Source: an uncultured Candidatus Binatia bacterium (GTDB taxonomy: Bacteria; Desulfobacterota; Binatia; Bin18). Taken from it: 64,000 nucleotides of DNA. The position numbers were made by a program, and so were the translations under genes. How positions within the stretch are numbered: position 1 is the stretch's first letter; each line of letters opens with the position of its first letter. Of the stretch, positions 13,621 through 21,071 are shown in pieces. Under the pieces are notes generated by a model. That model was not told where the DNA came from and did no database searches. It was given only the letters and a program-made list of their open reading frames with translations. The stretch covers positions 3,669,022 through 3,733,021 of the forward strand of contig OZ243979.1 of NCBI GenBank assembly GCA_965214755.1, in the 5' to 3' direction.

Positions 13621-14589
13621 ATGGGAAATATACTTGTTTTTGCAGAAACTCAAAAAGGGCGTGTCCCCAAGAGTTCGCTGATTGCCATTCAAGCCGGTAA
13701 AGACGCGGCGAGTAAACTCGGTGGTGACGTACTCGTGGCAGTCTTGGGCTCGGCCACCGCTGCCGCCGCCCAGGAAGCCGCAGGCTACGGGACGGCAAAG
13801 GTATTGGCCGTCGATGATGCGGCATTGGAAAACTATCTCGCAGACGCCTATGCGGCTACGCTCGAACAACTTGTGCAGGCCAATGATGTCACGCTGGTGG
13901 TGGCGACCGCGACGGCGGTGGGCAAAGATCTTTTGCCGCGGGTAGCAGCCCGACTGGGAGTGGGTATGGCCAGCGATGTGGTCAGCTTTCATGACGATGG
14001 GACCTTGCTGCGGCCCATGTATGCCGGCAATACCATGGCAACCGTAACGCTTGCGGACACGGTCAAGGTCGTGTCTGTCCGCAGCACTGCATTTGATGCC
14101 GCTCAGCCAGGAGAGCAGTCCGCAGTCGAGCAGATCAGTGTCAGCCTCGACGCGGACGTAACCAAAATGCAGTTTGTCGAGTTTAATGAAACCAAGTCCG
14201 ACCGGCCCAACCTGACGGAGGCCAGCATTGTGGTGTCTGGCGGGCGTGGGCTGAAGTCGGGTGAGAACTTCACAACCTATCTGGAGCCTTTGGTGAACGA
14301 GCTGAACGCGGCCATGGGGGCCAGTCGGGCGGCGGTTGATGCTGGCTTTGTTCCCAACGATCTGCAAGTTGGGCAGACCGGGAAAGTCGTGGCGCCGGAG
14401 TTGTATATTGCGGTGGGGATTTCCGGCGCGATTCAGCACTTGGCCGGCATGAAGGACTCAAAAGTCATTGTGGCGGTGAATAAAGATCCTGACGCACCGA
14501 TTTTCAACGTGGCTGACTACGGCTTGGTCGCGGACCTGTTCAAGGCCGTGCCCGAGCTGACCGAGGCAGTAAAAAAAGCCAAGGAGTAG
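13621..14589 (+). CDS. etfA: Electron transfer flavoprotein alpha subunit
   Basis: [13 protein letters not shown]...; FAD-binding C-terminal domain ([10 protein letters not shown]). Confidence 0.9.
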
Positions 14590-14725
14590 AAAATCGCGTC
14601 CCGCGAGGACCGCGTAACATAGACCCACCATGTAGGCCGCGGAATTCTCCGTGGCCCCATCTACACATTACATTTTGGGTAGGTCCGTTCAGTGTTCCTC
14701 GTCGTATGAAAGAATTATAGTGATA

Positions 14726-14779
14726 TCATATGATCGAATGATAGTCTTGCACCAGGCTCTGATAGATCATATGGTCGAT
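14726..14779. promoter_or_regulatory. Two direct repeats, each containing a CATATG palindrome, upstream of the MqsR-like gene (candidate TA operator)
   Basis: atcatatgatcga (14726-14738) and atcatatggtcga (14767-14779) in an AT-rich leader. Confidence 0.3.
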
Positions 14780-14808
14780 TCTAATGGAATCTCGCCAAAA
14801 CGTATGGG

Positions 14809-15174
14809 ATGACCGCTCCTGTGAGCATCGACGACTCGATAAGGCGTCAACTCGTTGTCCTCGCACGGCGAAGCAATGCTCGCGTGACCGAGCTCAGCTC
14901 CACCCGTCCGACAGACTGGCGGCCTGGAGAGGTTCGTGACCCGGCTGGAACGCTCTGGCCCTATTTTACCCGTACCTCGGCCTGGGAACTGATTGCGGAC
15001 ATGCTGGAAGGCGGGCACGATGTGGAAACTATTGAACTCCAAAAGCCTCCGGGAGCCAAAGGCTCTGTCATGAAAATCGACCTTGAGCCAAACAAACCAC
15101 TCCTGTACGTCAAGCTCCAATTGGGTTCTGGAAAGATCATTGGACGTAGTTTCCATTATTCGGAGTCGGAATAA
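14809..15174 (+). CDS. MqsR-like toxin (putative mRNA interferase)
   Basis: 121 aa; C-terminal LYVKLQLGSGKIIGRSFHYSE resembles the MqsR beta-strand core (YLKITVIHDVLIVSFKE); toxin-first order as in mqsRA. Confidence 0.45.
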   Translation: MTAPVSIDDSIRRQLVVLARRSNARVTELSSTRPTDWRPGEVRDPAGTLWPYFTRTSAWELIADMLEGGHDVETIELQKPPGAKGSVMKIDLEPNKPLLYVKLQLGSGKIIGRSFHYSESE

Positions 15175-15185
15175 GGAATTTGCGA

Positions 15186-15755
15186 ATGGAATCTCACACC
15201 TCGACAACCCCTATACCTACAGAAAACACAGCCTACGCCTGCCCACAGTGCGGAGAAAAAGGTGCGGTTACGACCTCGCCATACCTCTATACGTTTTGCT
15301 ACGGCTCTGGAGAGCCAACCGTTGATTTGACGGTTGAGTTACCGCTACGCCGATGTAGCTCCTGTGAGTTTGAGTTCTTGGATGATGAAGCCGAGAGACT
15401 TGAGCACGAAGCGATTTGCCAACACCTTGGGGTTCTTTCTCCCACTGAGATAGAAAGAATCAGGAGGAGTCACGACATGACACGTGCCGTCTTCGCGCAG
15501 GCTACAGGGCTTGGAGAGGCAACGCTGAACCGCTGGGAAAACGGTATCAAGATTCAGACGCTTGCGAATGACCGCTATCTCCGACTTCTGGCTGTACCCC
15601 TGAATATGCAGATACTCAAAAGGTTCGGTTCATCCGCACAGACATCGTCATATAGTGCGAATCTTAACGCCGGTAAATTCCAGGCGTTGAGTGAGTCCGA
15701 CCTTGTTCGGCATCGACGAGAACAAACATCTTTTGCCCTGCGATCGGCTGCCTGA
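15186..15755 (+). CDS. MqsA-like antitoxin (N-terminal CxxC..CxxC zinc ribbon + C-terminal XRE HTH)
   Basis: CPQCGEKG...CSSCEFEF zinc ribbon; HTH region LGEATLNRWENGIKIQTLANDRYLRLLAVP parallels MqsA GVNAFSRYEKGNAQPHPSTIKLLRVLDKHP; AAGGAA RBS upstream of ATG 15186 (ORF track begins at TTG 15180). Confidence 0.55.
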   Translation: MESHTSTTPIPTENTAYACPQCGEKGAVTTSPYLYTFCYGSGEPTVDLTVELPLRRCSSCEFEFLDDEAERLEHEAICQHLGVLSPTEIERIRRSHDMTRAVFAQATGLGEATLNRWENGIKIQTLANDRYLRLLAVPLNMQILKRFGSSAQTSSYSANLNAGKFQALSESDLVRHRREQTSFALRSAA

Positions 15756-15767
15756 CGACCTGACGAG

Positions 15768-17630
15768 ATGTACGTTACCACATTCTATTCTTTTAAAGGC
15801 GGCGTTGGGCGCACGATGGCGCTCGTGAACGCAGCCGTCGAACTTGCGAACACTGGCCGCCGAGTACTCGTGGTGGACTTTGACCTTGAAGCGCCCGGCC
15901 TCGACACCTTCGACATATTACACTCCGAAACTCAGGTCCCGGGAATCGTTGACTTCGTTAGCGGATATATAGCCTCTGGCCAAGCACCCGAAGTCGCCCA
16001 TTTTGTCAGCAAATCACCTAGCATCGGTGACAAGGGCGGCGGATTATGGATCATGCCGTCCGGCGCGCATGATAAGAGCTACGCGACGAATTTCAGTCAA
16101 ATCGACTGGGGGGCGCTCTATGAGCAGCATGACGGTTATCTTCTGTTCGAGGATCTCAAGGAGCAGTGGAGGCAGGTTCTCAAGCCCGATTATGTACTGA
16201 TTGATTCGCGCACGGGTCACACAGACAGCGGTGGCATCTGTACTCGGCAGATCCCCGACGCGGTGGCGATATTGTTTTTTCCGAATGAGCAGAATTTGCG
16301 GGGCTTGACCAAGGTCGTTCGTGACATTCGCGCGGAAGCAGAGGGACCACGCAAAAAGGAGATTGAACTCCACTTCGTGATGTCCAACGTGCCGGACTTG
16401 GACGACGAAGACCGGATTCTGGAGAGAAAAATTAAAGCGTTCCAAGACCAGCTTGGATTCAAGCGCGAACCGATGGTCGTACACAGATACGCCAGTATGT
16501 CATTGCTAAATCAAGTAGTGTTTACGAAGGACCGCCCGAGAAGTCGGCTCGCGCAGGAGTACCGTGACATCGTTCAAGAGATTGTCAGCCGCAATTTAGC
16601 AGACCGGGAGGGAGCGCTGGACTACATCCGACGGGCGAGCAGACGTTGGCGCCGTCGACCGATTGAGGAAGAATCTTCACACAGTACAAACAAGAAACTC
16701 CAGCAGATTGAGGATGTACATTCGGGCGATGGTGAGGTGTTGTTCAACCTTGGGGTACTTTGGAAGGATAACAGGCAGTTGGAACAGGCAGGGTTGTTAT
16801 TCGACCATGCGATTGAGGTGGGATACGACGAACCTGAGGCGTATCTAGAACGGGCTCGTCTTCGCGCCGAAAACAATGATCCGGACGGTGCGGGCAAGGA
16901 CGCATTAAAGGTTCTGCAGTCTGACAGATTACCCCCTTATATTGTCAGAGCGGCGATGGCGTTGATACGTGGTAATTCCGAAGATGTTATGGAGTCCCGG
17001 GCGCTGATGTCTTTGGAGACGGATGAACGTCTCTGGCTTGCGGATGAACTAGAGGGGTCGCCAGAAGAGATCAAAGCTACCATATCTATCTTACAGCCGC
17101 TTCTCGGCGACAATACTCTATCCGACGAAGACCGTCGTTCAGTAAGAGGTCAATTGGCGCTTGCGTATATTGGAAGCGGAGAATTTGCCCGGGCGACAGA
17201 ACTTCTCAGTTATGGAGGACGGCGCGTTGGTGATATGGAAATCCAAGACGCGTTCAACTATGGCATGGCGGTATGGGGGGCTACCTGCCATGTTGTTTCG
17301 GAGCCGTTTGCACGGGCAGTTGAACTTGATCGGGCAAATCAGGGCCCACCCGACAATAATCCGAATTACTTTCAGTGTATGGCGGTTGCCTATTGGGCCT
17401 ACGGCGATGTGGAGACCGCGCTAGAATTCATGCAAAAAGCGCGAGCGACACTAGACAAGATACGTCGTCCAGTGTTCAGCTGCTGGCGATATTACAGAGT
17501 GGGGGCAAAGGCATTTATAGACGACCTTGATGAGATCGTTGAATTGATTAGTGGTGATGCCTCACGAATCCCCCGCTTCATGGATGCTGCGGCTGAACCG
17601 GAGAAGACGGGACCTGCTGAATCCGATTAG
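15768..17630 (+). CDS. ParA/MinD-like P-loop NTPase (deviant Walker A FKGGVGRT) fused to C-terminal TPR-like repeats
   Basis: 620 aa; N-terminal ~260 aa align with MinD/ParA (FKGGVGRT; VVDFDLEAPGLD; YVLIDSRTG); C-terminal ~330 aa alpha-helical TPR-like; starts 13 nt after the MqsA-like stop. Confidence 0.6.
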   Translation: MYVTTFYSFKGGVGRTMALVNAAVELANTGRRVLVVDFDLEAPGLDTFDILHSETQVPGIVDFVSGYIASGQAPEVAHFVSKSPSIGDKGGGLWIMPSGAHDKSYATNFSQIDWGALYEQHDGYLLFEDLKEQWRQVLKPDYVLIDSRTGHTDSGGICTRQIPDAVAILFFPNEQNLRGLTKVVRDIRAEAEGPRKKEIELHFVMSNVPDLDDEDRILERKIKAFQDQLGFKREPMVVHRYASMSLLNQVVFTKDRPRSRLAQEYRDIVQEIVSRNLADREGALDYIRRASRRWRRRPIEEESSHSTNKKLQQIEDVHSGDGEVLFNLGVLWKDNRQLEQAGLLFDHAIEVGYDEPEAYLERARLRAENNDPDGAGKDALKVLQSDRLPPYIVRAAMALIRGNSEDVMESRALMSLETDERLWLADELEGSPEEIKATISILQPLLGDNTLSDEDRRSVRGQLALAYIGSGEFARATELLSYGGRRVGDMEIQDAFNYGMAVWGATCHVVSEPFARAVELDRANQGPPDNNPNYFQCMAVAYWAYGDVETALEFMQKARATLDKIRRPVFSCWRYYRVGAKAFIDDLDEIVELISGDASRIPRFMDAAAEPEKTGPAESD

Positions 17631-17657
17631 CGTGGACGGTGGTGTCCTAATAGCTGG

Positions 17658-20600
17658 ATGGTGGAAATGAGCCTGACGAGTCTTTTGATCGCTAATCGAG
17701 GGGAAATCGCTATCCGTGTCGCCCGCGCGGCGGCTGAACTCGGCATACGGACCGTTGCTATTTTCTCTGAAGATGATGCGCAGTCACTCCATACCCAAAA
17801 GACGGATGAAGCTCTGCCGCTCCAAGGCCGGGGTGCCGCGGCCTACCTCGATATCGAGCAGATCCTTGCGCTGGCCGAACAGGCGGGCTGCGATGCAATT
17901 CATCCCGGCTATGGGTTTCTGAGCGAAAACGCAGAGTTCGCCAGGCGCTGTGCCGAGGCTGGGATGACGTTTGTCGGACCCCAGGTCGAAACGCTGGCGC
18001 TGTTTGGTGACAAAGGACAGGCTAGAACGCTGGCCGAAAGATGCGAGGTGCCGGTCCTGCCCGGGACGTCCGGTCCGACGAGCGTCGACGAGGCCCAAGA
18101 GTTCCTGACTTCCTTGGGTGCCGACGGAGCTGTGATGATTAAAGCCCTGGCTGGTGGGGGCGGCCGCGGTATGCGGGCGGTGCAGGCGGGCGATGACCTT
18201 GAAGCGGCCTACGCGCGGTGTCAGTCCGAAGCAACTGCAGCGTTTGGCAACGGCGATGTGTATGTCGAGCAACTCATTCCCCGCGCGCGGCATATTGAGG
18301 TCCAGGTCGTCGGTGACGGGTCTGGCGCGGTCAGTCATCTTGGTGAGCGTGAGTGCAGCATCCAGCGCCGCAACCAGAAGCTGGTGGAACTCGCTCCGTC
18401 GCCCGGGCTGTCGTCTGCGCTCAGAGCGCGCTTGACCACCGCTGCGGTTCGACTTGCCCGGGAGGTGTACTACGCCAGCCTGGGTACGTTCGAGTTCCTG
18501 GTTGATGCGGAACATGGGAGCGATAACGCGATATTTGCCTTTATTGAGGCCAATGCGCGGCTACAAGTCGAGCACACCGTCACCGAAGAAGTGACGGGCG
18601 TGGACTTGGTCAAGGCGCAATTACACCTGGCCGGCGGCAGTTCGCTCGCTGACCTGGGACTCACTCAGGAACGTATTCCCGAGCCACGCGGCTTTGCCAT
18701 GCAGGTTCGTATCAATATGGAGACCATAGCGTCTGACGGCGCGCCGCGCCCGTCGGGTGGGACCTTAGCGGCGTTTGAAGTCCCGTCAGGCCCCGGCCTG
18801 CGAACCGATACCTTCGGCTATGTCGGCTATACCACTAGTCCGAGCTTCGATTCCCTGCTGGCCAAATTGGTCGGTTCTTCTCCCTCATCGGATTTCTCCG
18901 ATGTCGTGACCAGGACCTACCGGGCGCTGTGTGAATTCAAGATTGAAGGCGTGGCAACGAATATCCCATTCTTACAGAGCCTCTTACGGCATCCGGCGTT
19001 TGTGAAGAACCAGCTCTATACCCGCTTTGTCGAAGACCACAGTGCGGAGCTGATTCGGGCGGATCATCATCAACGCTTCTTTTTTCACACCGACCAGACC
19101 CAGCCAGAAGCTCCAGCGCTGGCTGGTGTGAAAGTGGATAGTATTGATCCTTTGGCCGTGCTTGAGCACGGCAGGTCTGCGGACCCGACAGCTACCGTTG
19201 CCATGACTCCGGTCGGACATGCACCCGAGGTGAGCGGTCCTGACGGGACCGTCGCCGTTCCGGCTCCTCTTCAGGGAACTATTGTCAGCCTTGACGTGAG
19301 TGAAGGCGACGAGGTGCATGTCGGCCAGCAGCTCCTCATCATGGAGTCCATGAAAATGGAACACGTGATCTCGACGGAAACGAGCGGCATTATCCGCCAA
19401 CTGACCGTCAGTCAGGGAGACGCGGTTTTTGAAGGCCACCCGCTTGCCTTTATTGAAGAGATCGAGGTGGAGATGACGGCAGTCGAAAAAGCGGCCGAGC
19501 TTGACCTCGACTATATCCGTCCGGACCTGGCTGAGATCGTTGAGCGGCATGAACTGGGCATGGACGCCGCTCGGCCCGAGGCGGTTGCGCGGCGGCGGAA
19601 GACCGGCCAACGCACGGCGCGTGAGAACATCTACGATATCTGTGACCCCGATAGCTATGTCGAGTACGGGCCCATGGTCATTGCGGCCCAACGGCAGCGG
19701 CGCTCGTTGGACGATTTAATCCGCCGCACCCCGGCAGACGGCATGATCGCCGGGGTCGGGAGTGTCAATGGCGATCTGTTTGATGAAAAAGCGGCTCAGT
19801 GTATCGTCATCTCCTACGATTACACTGTGCTGGCCGGGACACAAGGCTTTAAGAATCACTATAAAAAAGATCGTATGTTTGAGCTGGCCGAGCGCTGGAA
19901 GCTGCCGGTTGTCTTCTTTGCCGAAGGCGGCGGTGGTCGTCCGGGTGACACCGACTGGTCAAGTCCCTCCGGACTGGACGTGCCGGCCTTTTACCTGTGG
20001 GGCAAGCTCAGCGGCATGGTGCCCCTGGTCGGCATTACCTCAGGCCGGTGCTTTGCCGGCAATGCCGTGATTCTGGGCTGCTGTGATGTGATTATCGCGA
20101 CCGCAGGATCGAATATCGGCATGGGTGGCCCGGCCATGATTGAGGGGGGCGGCCTTGGGGTCTTCCGGCCGGAAGAGGTCGGGCCGATGGAAGAACAGGT
20201 GCCGAACGGCGTAGTGGATATCCCGGTCACAGACGAAGCCGAAGCAGTCCAGGTGGCGAAGCAATATCTCTCCTATTTTCAAGGACCAGTCGCCGAGTGG
20301 AACTGTGCCGACCAACGCCTGTTGCGTTATATCGTGCCGGAGAACCGCTTGCGCATTTATGAAGTCCGCGATGTGATCGAGATCCTGGCCGACACCGGTT
20401 CTGTGCTGGAAATCCGCAAGCATTTTGGTATCGGCATGGTCACCTCCTTTGTGCGGATTGAAGGCCGCCCGGTTGGGGTGATTGCCAACAACCCCAAACA
20501 TCTGGGCGGAGCCATTGATTCTGATGCGGCGGACAAAGCCACGCGGTTCATGCAGTTGTGTGACGCGTTTGACATTCCCATTCTCATGCTGTGCGACACT

Positions 20601-21071
20601 CCGGGTAATATGGTTGGCCCCGAGTACGAAAAGACCGCTCTGGTGCGTCACTGCTGTCGCATGTTTGTGACCGGTGCGAGCCTGACCGTGCCGTTCTTCA
20701 CCATCGTGTTGCGAAAATCGTATGGACTCGGCGCGCAGGGGATGGCCGGGGGGAGCTTCAAAGCCCCGGCTTTTGCGGTGTCCTGGCCAACGGGTGAGTT
20801 CGGGGGCATGGGGCTGGAGGGCGCGGTGAAGCTGGGTTACCGCAAGGAGTTGGAGGCGGAGACGGCCCCGTATAAGCGCAAGGAACTCTACGAACAACTC
20901 GTTGCCAAGATGTATGAAAGCGGCAAGGCGCTCAGCACCGCAACTTATTTTGAAATTGATGACGTAATTGATCCTGCCGAGTCTCGACGCTGGATTATGG
21001 CCGCCCTGCGCTCCTCGCCTCCGCCCGTTCCCCGTACGGAGAAAAAACGGCCGTGTATTGATACGTGGTGA
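17658..21071 (+). CDS. Single-chain biotin-dependent acyl-CoA carboxylase (BC-BCCP-carboxyltransferase fusion, LCC-like)
   Basis: 1137 aa; N-terminal BC (LIANRGEIAIRVARAA...), central biotinyl motif IMESMKMEH, C-terminal carboxyltransferase domain (GGGRPGDTD...GITSGRCFAGNAV...). Confidence 0.8.
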   Translation: MVEMSLTSLLIANRGEIAIRVARAAAELGIRTVAIFSEDDAQSLHTQKTDEALPLQGRGAAAYLDIEQILALAEQAGCDAIHPGYGFLSENAEFARRCAEAGMTFVGPQVETLALFGDKGQARTLAERCEVPVLPGTSGPTSVDEAQEFLTSLGADGAVMIKALAGGGGRGMRAVQAGDDLEAAYARCQSEATAAFGNGDVYVEQLIPRARHIEVQVVGDGSGAVSHLGERECSIQRRNQKLVELAPSPGLSSALRARLTTAAVRLAREVYYASLGTFEFLVDAEHGSDNAIFAFIEANARLQVEHTVTEEVTGVDLVKAQLHLAGGSSLADLGLTQERIPEPRGFAMQVRINMETIASDGAPRPSGGTLAAFEVPSGPGLRTDTFGYVGYTTSPSFDSLLAKLVGSSPSSDFSDVVTRTYRALCEFKIEGVATNIPFLQSLLRHPAFVKNQLYTRFVEDHSAELIRADHHQRFFFHTDQTQPEAPALAGVKVDSIDPLAVLEHGRSADPTATVAMTPVGHAPEVSGPDGTVAVPAPLQGTIVSLDVSEGDEVHVGQQLLIMESMKMEHVISTETSGIIRQLTVSQGDAVFEGHPLAFIEEIEVEMTAVEKAAELDLDYIRPDLAEIVERHELGMDAARPEAVARRRKTGQRTARENIYDICDPDSYVEYGPMVIAAQRQRRSLDDLIRRTPADGMIAGVGSVNGDLFDEKAAQCIVISYDYTVLAGTQGFKNHYKKDRMFELAERWKLPVVFFAEGGGGRPGDTDWSSPSGLDVPAFYLWGKLSGMVPLVGITSGRCFAGNAVILGCCDVIIATAGSNIGMGGPAMIEGGGLGVFRPEEVGPMEEQVPNGVVDIPVTDEAEAVQVAKQYLSYFQGPVAEWNCADQRLLRYIVPENRLRIYEVRDVIEILADTGSVLEIRKHFGIGMVTSFVRIEGRPVGVIANNPKHLGGAIDSDAADKATRFMQLCDAFDIPILMLCDTPGNMVGPEYEKTALVRHCCRMFVTGASLTVPFFTIVLRKSYGLGAQGMAGGSFKAPAFAVSWPTGEFGGMGLEGAVKLGYRKELEAETAPYKRKELYEQLVAKMYESGKALSTATYFEIDDVIDPAESRRWIMAALRSSPPPVPRTEKKRPCIDTW

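Follow-up and report, generated by a model that had tools for sequence, protein, structure and literature searches.

Here we describe a three-gene module in a 64,000-nt stretch of DNA (hereafter, the window) from an uncultured Candidatus Binatia bacterium (contig OZ243979.1, positions 3,669,022 to 3,733,021); coordinates are those of the window unless another locus is named. The module, 2.9 kb in size, encodes a putative toxin (g1), a putative MqsA-family antitoxin (g2), and a ParA/MinD-fold ATPase fused to a TPR array (g3), and the three genes are passed on together in at least seven phyla. On balance, we favor the view that the module is a self-contained, mobile, and autoregulated operon, working as a tripartite toxin-antitoxin (TA)-type conflict module under sensor-switch control. 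The three genes are:

14809-15174, plus strand: g1, 121 aa; putative toxin with a predicted MqsR-like fold and the C-terminal motif Y100-x-K102...G112-R-S-F-H116.
15180-15755, plus strand: g2, 191 aa counted from the TTG; putative MqsA-family antitoxin and autorepressor.
15768-17630, plus strand: g3, 620 aa; ATPase-TPR fusion.

The likelier start of g2 is the ATG at 15186, two codons past the TTG at 15180. The g1-g2 gap is 5 nt, or 11 nt if g2 starts at the ATG, as a first-pass annotation of this DNA had given it; the g2-g3 gap, put there at 13 nt, measures 12 nt.

Relatives of g3 were found in at least 585 species-level genomes in a scan of one genome per species, and the linkage counts rest on the best 80 loci, which come from Binatia, Acidobacteriota, Latescibacterota, Spirochaetia, Gamma- and Alphaproteobacteria, Planctomycetota, and Myxococcota. 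Homologs of g1 and g2 lie directly upstream of g3 on the same strand in all 80 loci, down to 40% g3 identity, with g1 immediately before the MqsA-type gene. The same order was found in four loci selected by g1 instead, each of which has g1 directly upstream of an MqsA-like gene on the same strand and, downstream, a gene for a 619-688-aa CbiA/AAA_31 protein (4/4). The recurrent linkage of the ATPase-TPR gene to an MqsRA-like pair, raised by the first-pass annotation, is therefore upheld from both directions. Complete triads are also present on plasmids of the cultured species Massilia forsythiae, Rhizobium gallicum, and R. phaseoli, with g3 identities of 37-38%; five full-length copies are plasmid-borne, and the Massilia cassette lies near repA. 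Module sequences from different phyla (loci L001-L080) are 50-65% identical, which suggests horizontal spread. The cassette, probably horizontally mobile, sits in variable, mostly housekeeping contexts. No recurrent fourth gene and no linked integrase or transposase was found around it, the commonest neighbor family being present in 7 of 82 loci because of synteny among related Binatia.

At least four Binatia loci carry a gene for a 221-229-aa protein with no Pfam match on the same strand, 33-188 nt downstream of g3 (for example, L003 7916-8581, L078 6873-7562, and L081 12090-12761; the protein starts ...IGSLHITGMQWHAGRLWL...). This gene is probably a matter of lineage synteny and not a fourth component. 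Some of the metagenome-assembled genomes (MAGs) that bear the module are named like sponge symbionts (Candidatus Poriferihabitaceae; bins COS3, RHO1, RHO3, and CAR1), an observation that concerns names only. In the plasmid records g1 is unannotated although present: hmmsearch detects it in Massilia forsythiae (L086, 5060-5392) and Rhizobium gallicum (L087, 6117-6449) with E-values of 1e-35 and 1e-30, respectively, but the PLSDB tables do not list it, and the toxin gene of the module may often be uncalled or unlisted.

The second line of evidence is the leader of g1, which contains the following elements:

14725-14737, no strand assigned: putative operator repeat 1, ATCATATGATCGA, 13 nt; it holds the perfect 10-nt palindrome ATCATATGAT at 14725-14734.
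14766-14778, no strand assigned: putative operator repeat 2, ATCATATGGTCGA, 13 nt; differs from the palindrome at one position and is offset from repeat 1 by 41 nt in the downstream direction.
14706-14734, plus strand: promoter-like site from a consensus scan, with -35 ATGAAA, a 17-nt spacer, and -10 TATGAT; 9/12 consensus match.

Both repeats have a CATATG core and the same orientation, and they had been noted earlier as a possible operator. Allowing one mismatch at most, ATCATATGAT occurs at just two sites in the whole window, both of them in the g1 leader, and the comparison between loci strengthens the case: in 73 of the 80 loci the palindrome recurs, at the same stringency, no more than 200 nt upstream of g1, with two or more sites in 39. 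It occurs there 6.5 times per kb and in the other 1.03 Mb of these loci 0.0097 times per kb, an enrichment of about 680-fold, and across loci the sites concentrate at -100 to -80 and -60 to -20 from the g1 start. Repeat 2 is kept in four syntenic Binatia genomes. The recurrence of the triad in 80/80 loci and of the palindrome in 73/80 places both far beyond chance. This is strong comparative evidence that the CATATG repeats are a family-wide operator, through which the helix-turn-helix (HTH) domain of g2 would autoregulate the module. The number of promoter-like sites that the consensus scan returned in the region is not above chance. This particular site is made credible by its overlap with the conserved palindrome, as its -10-like TATGAT falls within palindrome 1, so that a bound repressor would be expected to occlude the promoter. 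A search of the module leader against Rfam gave no known RNA at E<=1. The operator of E. coli MqsA is ACCT-N-AGGT, from which ATCATATGAT differs.

The presumed repressor has the MqsA hallmark architecture, as proposed from the first reading of the sequence, with a CxxC...CxxC zinc ribbon followed by an HTH:

aa 21-62 of g2, 15240-15365, plus strand: zinc ribbon, C21xxC24...C59xxC62.
aa 86-140 of g2, 15435-15599, plus strand: XRE HTH (HTH_3, 2.8e-6).
aa 165-191 of g2, 15672-15752, plus strand: conserved C-terminal tail, ending F-x-L-R-x-A-A.

The four cysteines C21, C24, C59, and C62 are 100% conserved in 81 sequences. A profile of 38 g2 homologs matches residues 3-130 of E. coli MqsA (3gn5), covering both domains, with an E-value of 5e-6, and hhalign of g2 against MqsA gave a probability of 95.4% over 121 columns; the 3gn5 match is independent of the MqsA sequence used for hhalign. 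RefSeq calls plasmid homologs of g2 'MqsA family protein'. The match of g2 to TIGR03830 (5.8e-15, 55.2 bits) is under the curated cut-off of 61.8, and that to PF15731 (19.8 bits) is under the cut-off of 30. By these profile comparisons, g2 is a divergent member of the MqsA family. Past the HTH, the protein continues with a poorly conserved linker and then, at the C-terminus, a conserved tail of the form (R/K)FRxL ... FxLRxA(A/S). Compared with MqsA, g2 is longer by about 19 residues at the N-terminus and by about 50 at the C-terminus, where the tail lies.

The resemblance of g1 to MqsR, claimed by the first-pass annotation, held for the predicted fold but not for the sequence. MqsR is the best match of the predicted g1 fold, which is of the MqsR type of alpha/beta fold (RelE/BECR superfamily). 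At the sequence level, comparisons with the Pfam families of MqsR and the BECR group were negative with the single sequence and with profiles of 48 and 93 sequences, none of 93 diverse family members matches PF15723 (MqsR), and hhalign of the g1 family against MqsR gave a probability of 0.3-0.7%. The single sequence of g1 had no match in Pfam (E<=1), NCBIfam, or PADLOC, a sequence search of the PDB was negative, and Foldseek returned no significant match. A short hhalign fragment pairs the invariant Y100 of g1 with Y81 of MqsR (LYVKLQ / VYLKIT), a fragment only, at that same 0.3-0.7% probability; the catalytic residues of MqsR are K56, Q68, Y81, and K96. The family consists of compact single-domain proteins of 110-140 aa that form 485 clusters at 50% identity; Y100, S114, and F115 are invariant, and R12, W37, P39, F53, W59, K102, G112, R113, and H116 are almost so. 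Judging from the predicted structure, g1 represents a new sequence family with the MqsR fold. A role of g1 as a toxin seems plausible given the predicted fold, the toxin-first position as in mqsRA, and the obligate MqsA-type partner.

The third protein joins two domains:

aa 1-285 of g3, 15768-16622, plus strand: N-terminal KGGVGR-clade ATPase of the ParA/MinD fold.
15792-15815, plus strand: Walker A FKGGVGRT; the other motifs are the switch-I-like DFDLEAPG and the Walker B VLIDSRTG.
aa ~319-605 of g3, 16722-17582, plus strand: C-terminal, all-helical TPR-like array.

Both parts of the earlier assignment, a ParA/MinD-type NTPase and TPR-like helices, were confirmed. Residues 2-187 match the NCBIfam model NF047398, 'KGGVGR-motif variant AAA ATPase', at 1e-48 and 166.3 bits (cut-off 90), and Foldseek places the N-terminal ~280 residues of the g3 model with FlhG, Soj, ParA, MinD, and NifH at a probability of 1.0 and target TM-scores of 0.6-0.74. 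The C-terminal part matches TPR_2 and other TPR families in Pfam, and the AlphaFold2 model is helical there, with confidence values (pLDDT) mostly of 85-95. The unusual Walker A with Arg, also pointed out in the first reading, is indeed present: the N-terminus reads MYVTTFYSFKGGVGRT, the motif is FKGGVGR[T/S] in 20 aligned homologs, and the canonical P-loop lysine of KGGxxGK[ST] is replaced by Arg in all members. Since Lys10, the P-loop Arg15, DFDLEAPG, and VLIDSRTG are invariant in this alignment, the Arg is characteristic of the clade, and the active site is intact in other respects.

Some public entries for g3 are shorter. Protein P0121 has 604 aa and starts at Met17, so that it is missing the Walker A FKGGVGRT, and the homologs P0128, P0131, P0157, and P0196 are likewise of about 600-604 aa, without a CbiA/AAA_31 Pfam match; these short starts are probably a systematic start-codon miscall. 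At the other end of the protein, L095 (5428-7494) encodes a 688-aa variant with an added DUF7662 (PF24698), and P0232 is a 740-aa form with about 120 extra C-terminal residues.

No description of a triad made of an MqsR/MqsA-type pair and a ParA-like ATPase-TPR protein was found in the literature searched, in keeping with the first-pass claim of an undescribed composition. The parts themselves fall into known categories, namely the MqsA family, the MqsR fold, and an ATPase domain already catalogued, and tripartite defense based on MqsRA is also known. In the E. coli pair MqsR-MqsA (ygiU-ygiT; PDB 3HI2, 3GN5, and 3O9X), the toxin gene comes first, as here; however, the module has an obligate third gene, and no similarity of sequence to MqsR (PF15723) was detected for g1. 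A closer precedent is MqsRAC, in which MqsRA and a SecB-like chaperone protect E. coli from phage T2 (Vassallo et al. 2022, PMC9519451) and in which MqsA and MqsC are both needed to neutralize MqsR (PMC9519451). Like this system and other toxin-antitoxin-chaperone (TAC) modules, the module combines an MqsRA-type pair with a third protein and has an antitoxin with a C-terminal extension, but the third protein is a ParA/MinD-fold KGGVGR ATPase with TPRs instead of a SecB-like chaperone. Membership in MqsRAC/TAC was therefore rejected.

The ATPase domain has relatives of its own. NF047398 describes the same Walker A variant as that of g3 but is a domain model only, with no system, partners, or function attached, and we found no paper on this domain in the literature. 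PDC-M28 (A/B/C) is an untested phage-defense candidate in PADLOC, nominated by 'guilt-by-embedding' (Payne et al. 2024 preprint), whose proteins are 179 aa (A), 438 aa (B), and ~480 aa (C) long and score 415, 448, and 576 bits in an Enterobacter plasmid copy. PDC-M28B shares the KGGVGR, DLE[A/S]PG, and D[S/A]R[T/S]G motifs with g3 and occupies the middle or the last place in a cassette of three genes, often beside integrases; it differs by a 125-aa N-terminal extension and by having no TPR. Membership in PDC-M28 was rejected, as g3 scores 109 bits over the ATPase core only (positions 131-354 in a profile of 438), where a true member reaches 448, and g1 and g2 have no PDC-M28A or PDC-M28C match. 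On these scores, the module is a sister system and not PDC-M28. Two other arrangements of the clade lie on rhizobial plasmids. In Sinorhizobium chiapasense, L088 (4989-7193) encodes a 734-aa fusion of a KGGVGR ParA-like domain with TIR (TIR_2, 3.6e-15), preceded by a 106-aa open reading frame (ORF) and with two more TIR proteins nearby; g1 and g2 are absent. In Rhizobium sp. CC1099, L091 (4324-8671) encodes three proteins, one of 221 aa that is winged-HTH/MarR-like, a KGGSGR ATPase fusion of 737 aa, and one of 488 aa that weakly matches CN-hydrolase, and the flanking FRG, SIR2, and nucleoside 2-deoxyribosyltransferase genes look like a defense island. The motifs KGG[V/S]GR[S/T], DLE[A/S]PG, and D[S/A]R[T/S]G are common to g3, PDC-M28B, and the TIR and CN-hydrolase cassettes.

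Two looser comparisons can be made. Kaur, Burroughs, Iyer, and Aravind (2020, PMC7159879) described certain MinD/ParA-like domains of conflict systems as 'predicted to be inactive'. These resemble g3 in being MinD/ParA-like SIMIBI domains with a predicted catalytic defect, alongside TPR-type repeats, but they are effector domains in vWA-MoxR/VMAP ternary systems or kinase fusions, and MqsR/MqsA is unmentioned there (PMC7159879). The STAND/Avs NTPases, by analogy only, also couple an NTPase switch to a fast-evolving helical-repeat sensor that controls a toxic effector, whereas g3 is of the SIMIBI ParA/MinD class and its effector is a separate TA pair and not a fused domain.

The insertion site itself gives a view of how the module evolves. 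The three co-directional ORFs lie, as first reported, between etfA (13621-14589) on one side and a gene for a biotin carboxylase/carboxyltransferase fusion (17658-21071) on the other. The GC content is lower than that of the surroundings, as had been proposed (52.8% in the module and 47% in its leader against 56-59% in the flanks; at third codon positions, 52-58% against 64-67%), although the contrast is modest. We compared the ratio of nonsynonymous to synonymous substitution rates (dN/dS) in four Binatia MAGs that share this site (iclR-etfB-etfA / module / carboxylase):

Flanking genes: protein identity 92-98%, dN/dS 0.05-0.21, dS 0.10-0.39.
g1 and g2: protein identity 78-92%, dN/dS 0.22-0.30, dS 0.22-0.42.
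g3 ATPase domain: protein identity 86-91%, dN/dS 0.07-0.11, dS 0.65-0.79.
g3 TPR region (L001 and L010, where it is intact): identity 68-70%, dN/dS 0.20-0.26, dS 0.68-0.90.

The dN/dS values of 0.07-0.30 indicate purifying selection on all three genes, and all three are therefore functional. Relative to the closest relative, L010, the module has a dS of 0.27-0.68 and the flanks one of about 0.10, and the dS of g3 exceeds that of the flanks in 4/4 syntenic genomes. This excess indicates allele exchange at a fixed site and not merely faster evolution. The TPR array is the fastest-evolving part of the module, with a family-wide mean pairwise identity of 0.48, compared with 0.74-0.78 for the ATPase domain.

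The spacer between etfA and g1 contains a stable hairpin at 14635-14657, GGCCGCGGA-AUUC-UCCGUGGCC, close to the 3' side of the etfA stop; the 84-nt region around it folds with z = -3.3. The block CCATGTAGGCCGCGGAATTC around the hairpin is identical in 5/5 syntenic Binatia genomes, and other parts of the spacer vary. The hairpin has no U-run and no Rfam match, and it may be an etfA terminator or stabilizer or a repetitive extragenic palindromic (REP)-like element.

Natural variants bear on the roles of the two g3 domains. All or most of the TPR part is missing in L079 (284 aa), L080 (307 aa), L037 (409 aa), and L046 (433 aa), and g1 keeps 25/25 family-invariant residues in these four loci. In L040 (2650-6000), two insertion sequence (IS) copies in tandem interrupt g3 after about residue 58; their transposases are 410-416 aa long with a zinc-finger N-terminus, and g1 carries Y100C. 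In L034 (4630-6000), a gene for a 370-aa DDE transposase lies on the minus strand between g2 and g3, and W59 of g1 is deleted. L078 has a truncated g3 (284 aa) and a 27-aa remnant of g1, and its operator ATCATATGAT is gone; the operator is also missing from L079. The shortened-g3 loci L037, L046, L078, L079, and L080 look like stages of decay. As a hint only, since the cases are few, this suggests that loss of the TPR part is tolerated with a live toxin and that loss of the ATPase domain is not.

In the scheme that we favor, g1 would be an mRNA-cleaving toxin that the zinc ribbon of g2 keeps inactive, as MqsA does with MqsR, and a dimer of the g2 HTH would repress the operon by binding the ATCATATGAT palindromes, the first of them overlapping the -10 hexamer. 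The third protein would be a nucleotide-dependent switch or sensor. Its TPR array could recognize a variable ligand, most plausibly a protein of a phage or another mobile element, and its ATPase domain would act on g2 by ATP-dependent dimerization, probably through the C-terminal tail of g2. Recognition would free or activate the toxin and lead to cell arrest, as abortive infection or as growth arrest. The module would then work like MqsRAC-type systems in which the SecB chaperone has been replaced by a SIMIBI-class ATPase-TPR protein; a role in defense or abortive infection is inferred. The linkage, operator, fold, and selection results given above count in favor of this scheme, with MqsRAC as a precedent, and so do three further observations. 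The g2 tail is conserved after an unconserved linker; the four loci with TPR deletions and an intact toxin fit a sensory and not a neutralizing role of the array; and the KGGVGR clade appears in conflict-type settings (PDC-M28B, the TIR fusion, and the FRG/SIR2 cassette).

Several points weigh against it. The contact between the g2 tail and g3 is a guess. No phage-borne copy was found among 50,697 phage records or in IMG/VR. The nearest neighbors are mostly metabolic, and about 8-10 of 126 match defense models, a raw count given without a background rate; there are single or double matches to MADS, AriA, type I restriction-modification (RM), a CBASS cyclase, and SIR2, and in one locus the module has a DUF4062 gene on one side and a cluster of MmeI-type RM/Schlafen genes on the other. 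A systematic location in defense islands is therefore not supported, and the defense-island linkage that the first-pass annotation proposed to check is occasional. Finally, disruption, truncation, or uncoupling of the ATPase domain goes with a damaged g1 in all three loci concerned (L040, L034, and L078), which would fit a guardian or co-antitoxin role of the ATPase rather than that of a pure trigger.

A bolder form of the same scheme is conceivable, and we hold it only tentatively. It would make the module a widespread, undescribed immune/conflict class in which a SIMIBI NTPase with a Lys-to-Arg P-loop serves as a pattern-recognition switch, uses a hypervariable TPR sensor, and controls an MqsR-fold RNase through the g2 tail. 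Such a class would be a non-STAND counterpart of the NLR/Avs proteins, and the KGGVGR clade would be a dedicated family of immune NTPases.

The strongest alternative, unlikely as we judge it, is a TAC-like addiction module in which the g3 ATPase is a constitutive co-antitoxin that stabilizes g2 via its tail, with the toxin released once g3 is titrated or inhibited and the TPR array as a modulator only. It differs from the sensor-switch scheme in the default state and in the need for g3 in neutralization. The conserved C-terminal extension of g2 recalls chaperone-addicted antitoxins, and MqsRAC, where MqsA and MqsC are both required against MqsR (PMC9519451), is a direct precedent. The natural variants are also as expected for a guardian: the loci with ATPase damage carry g1 Y100C, the loss of W59, or a truncation (L040, L034, and L078), and the four loci missing only the TPR part keep all 25 invariant g1 residues. 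However, only three loci are informative, all of them metagenome assemblies, and ParA-fold ATPases are not known chaperones. The trigger and guardian sub-models cannot yet be separated.

It is rather improbable that the module is an ordinary stress-responsive or selfish type II TA with an accessory regulator, outside any conflict with phages or mobile elements. The metabolic neighbors and the failure to find phage-borne copies in the records searched would suit such a system, and TA loci are commonly scattered. Yet the three genes are kept strictly together over seven phyla, the TPR array diverges quickly, allele exchange takes place at a fixed site, and the relatives of the ATPase are found in conflict-type contexts. 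We regard as very improbable a stability or partition cassette, in which g3 would be a ParA motor, g2 a centromere-binding adaptor, the ATCATATGAT repeats the centromere, and g1 the agent of post-segregational killing, so that plasmids or genomic islands are stabilized with no sensing of invaders. A ParA-fold ATPase, an HTH protein, and upstream palindromes are formally like a small par locus, and the plasmid-borne copies, including the one near repA in Massilia, would be at home in this reading. Neither ParB nor MinE was found at the module, and g2 with the palindromes could formally take such a part. However, the best 80 loci are found on chromosomes, as single copies between housekeeping genes and without signs of a replicon or an island, and the Massilia plasmid carries its own canonical parA and partition determinant. 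The scores of g3 against the ParA partition equivalog (26.8, cut-off 180) and the MinD equivalog (23.6, cut-off 212.9) are far under the thresholds, the P-loop lysine is replaced by Arg, a fast-evolving TPR array of 330 aa has no role in partition, and clade relatives are TIR-fused or part of PDC-M28. Least probable of all is that g3 is itself the effector, an impaired MinD/ParA-like domain that poisons division or chromosome segregation under the regulation of g1 and g2: the placing of predicted-inactive MinD/ParA-like domains among cell-division effectors (PMC7159879) and the invariant Lys-to-Arg exchange speak for it, but one would not expect Lys10, the DxD of switch I, and the Walker B Asp146 to be invariant in a dead enzyme, strong purifying selection acts on the ATPase domain (dN/dS 0.07-0.11), and g1, with its predicted MqsR-like fold, is in the classical toxin position beside an MqsA-type antitoxin.

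From a biological perspective, the module adds a putative MqsR-fold toxin family that has no Pfam or NCBIfam model and a putative new MqsA-type operator, ATCATATGAT. The annotation of this widespread operon needs correcting, for the start of g3 and the uncalled g1, even if it were only a stability cassette. The invariant replacement of the P-loop Lys by Arg leaves the remaining catalytic motifs unchanged and offers a natural experiment on the retuning of SIMIBI switches. The module is compact, has a defined putative operator, and is present in culturable Rhizobium and Massilia, and it is thus directly testable. If the sensor-switch scheme is true, it would give a function to a ParA/MinD-like clade known only as NF047398 and as a PADLOC candidate, and, next to chaperone-coupled TAC systems and fused sensor-effectors, it would be a third way of connecting a type II TA pair with a sensor.

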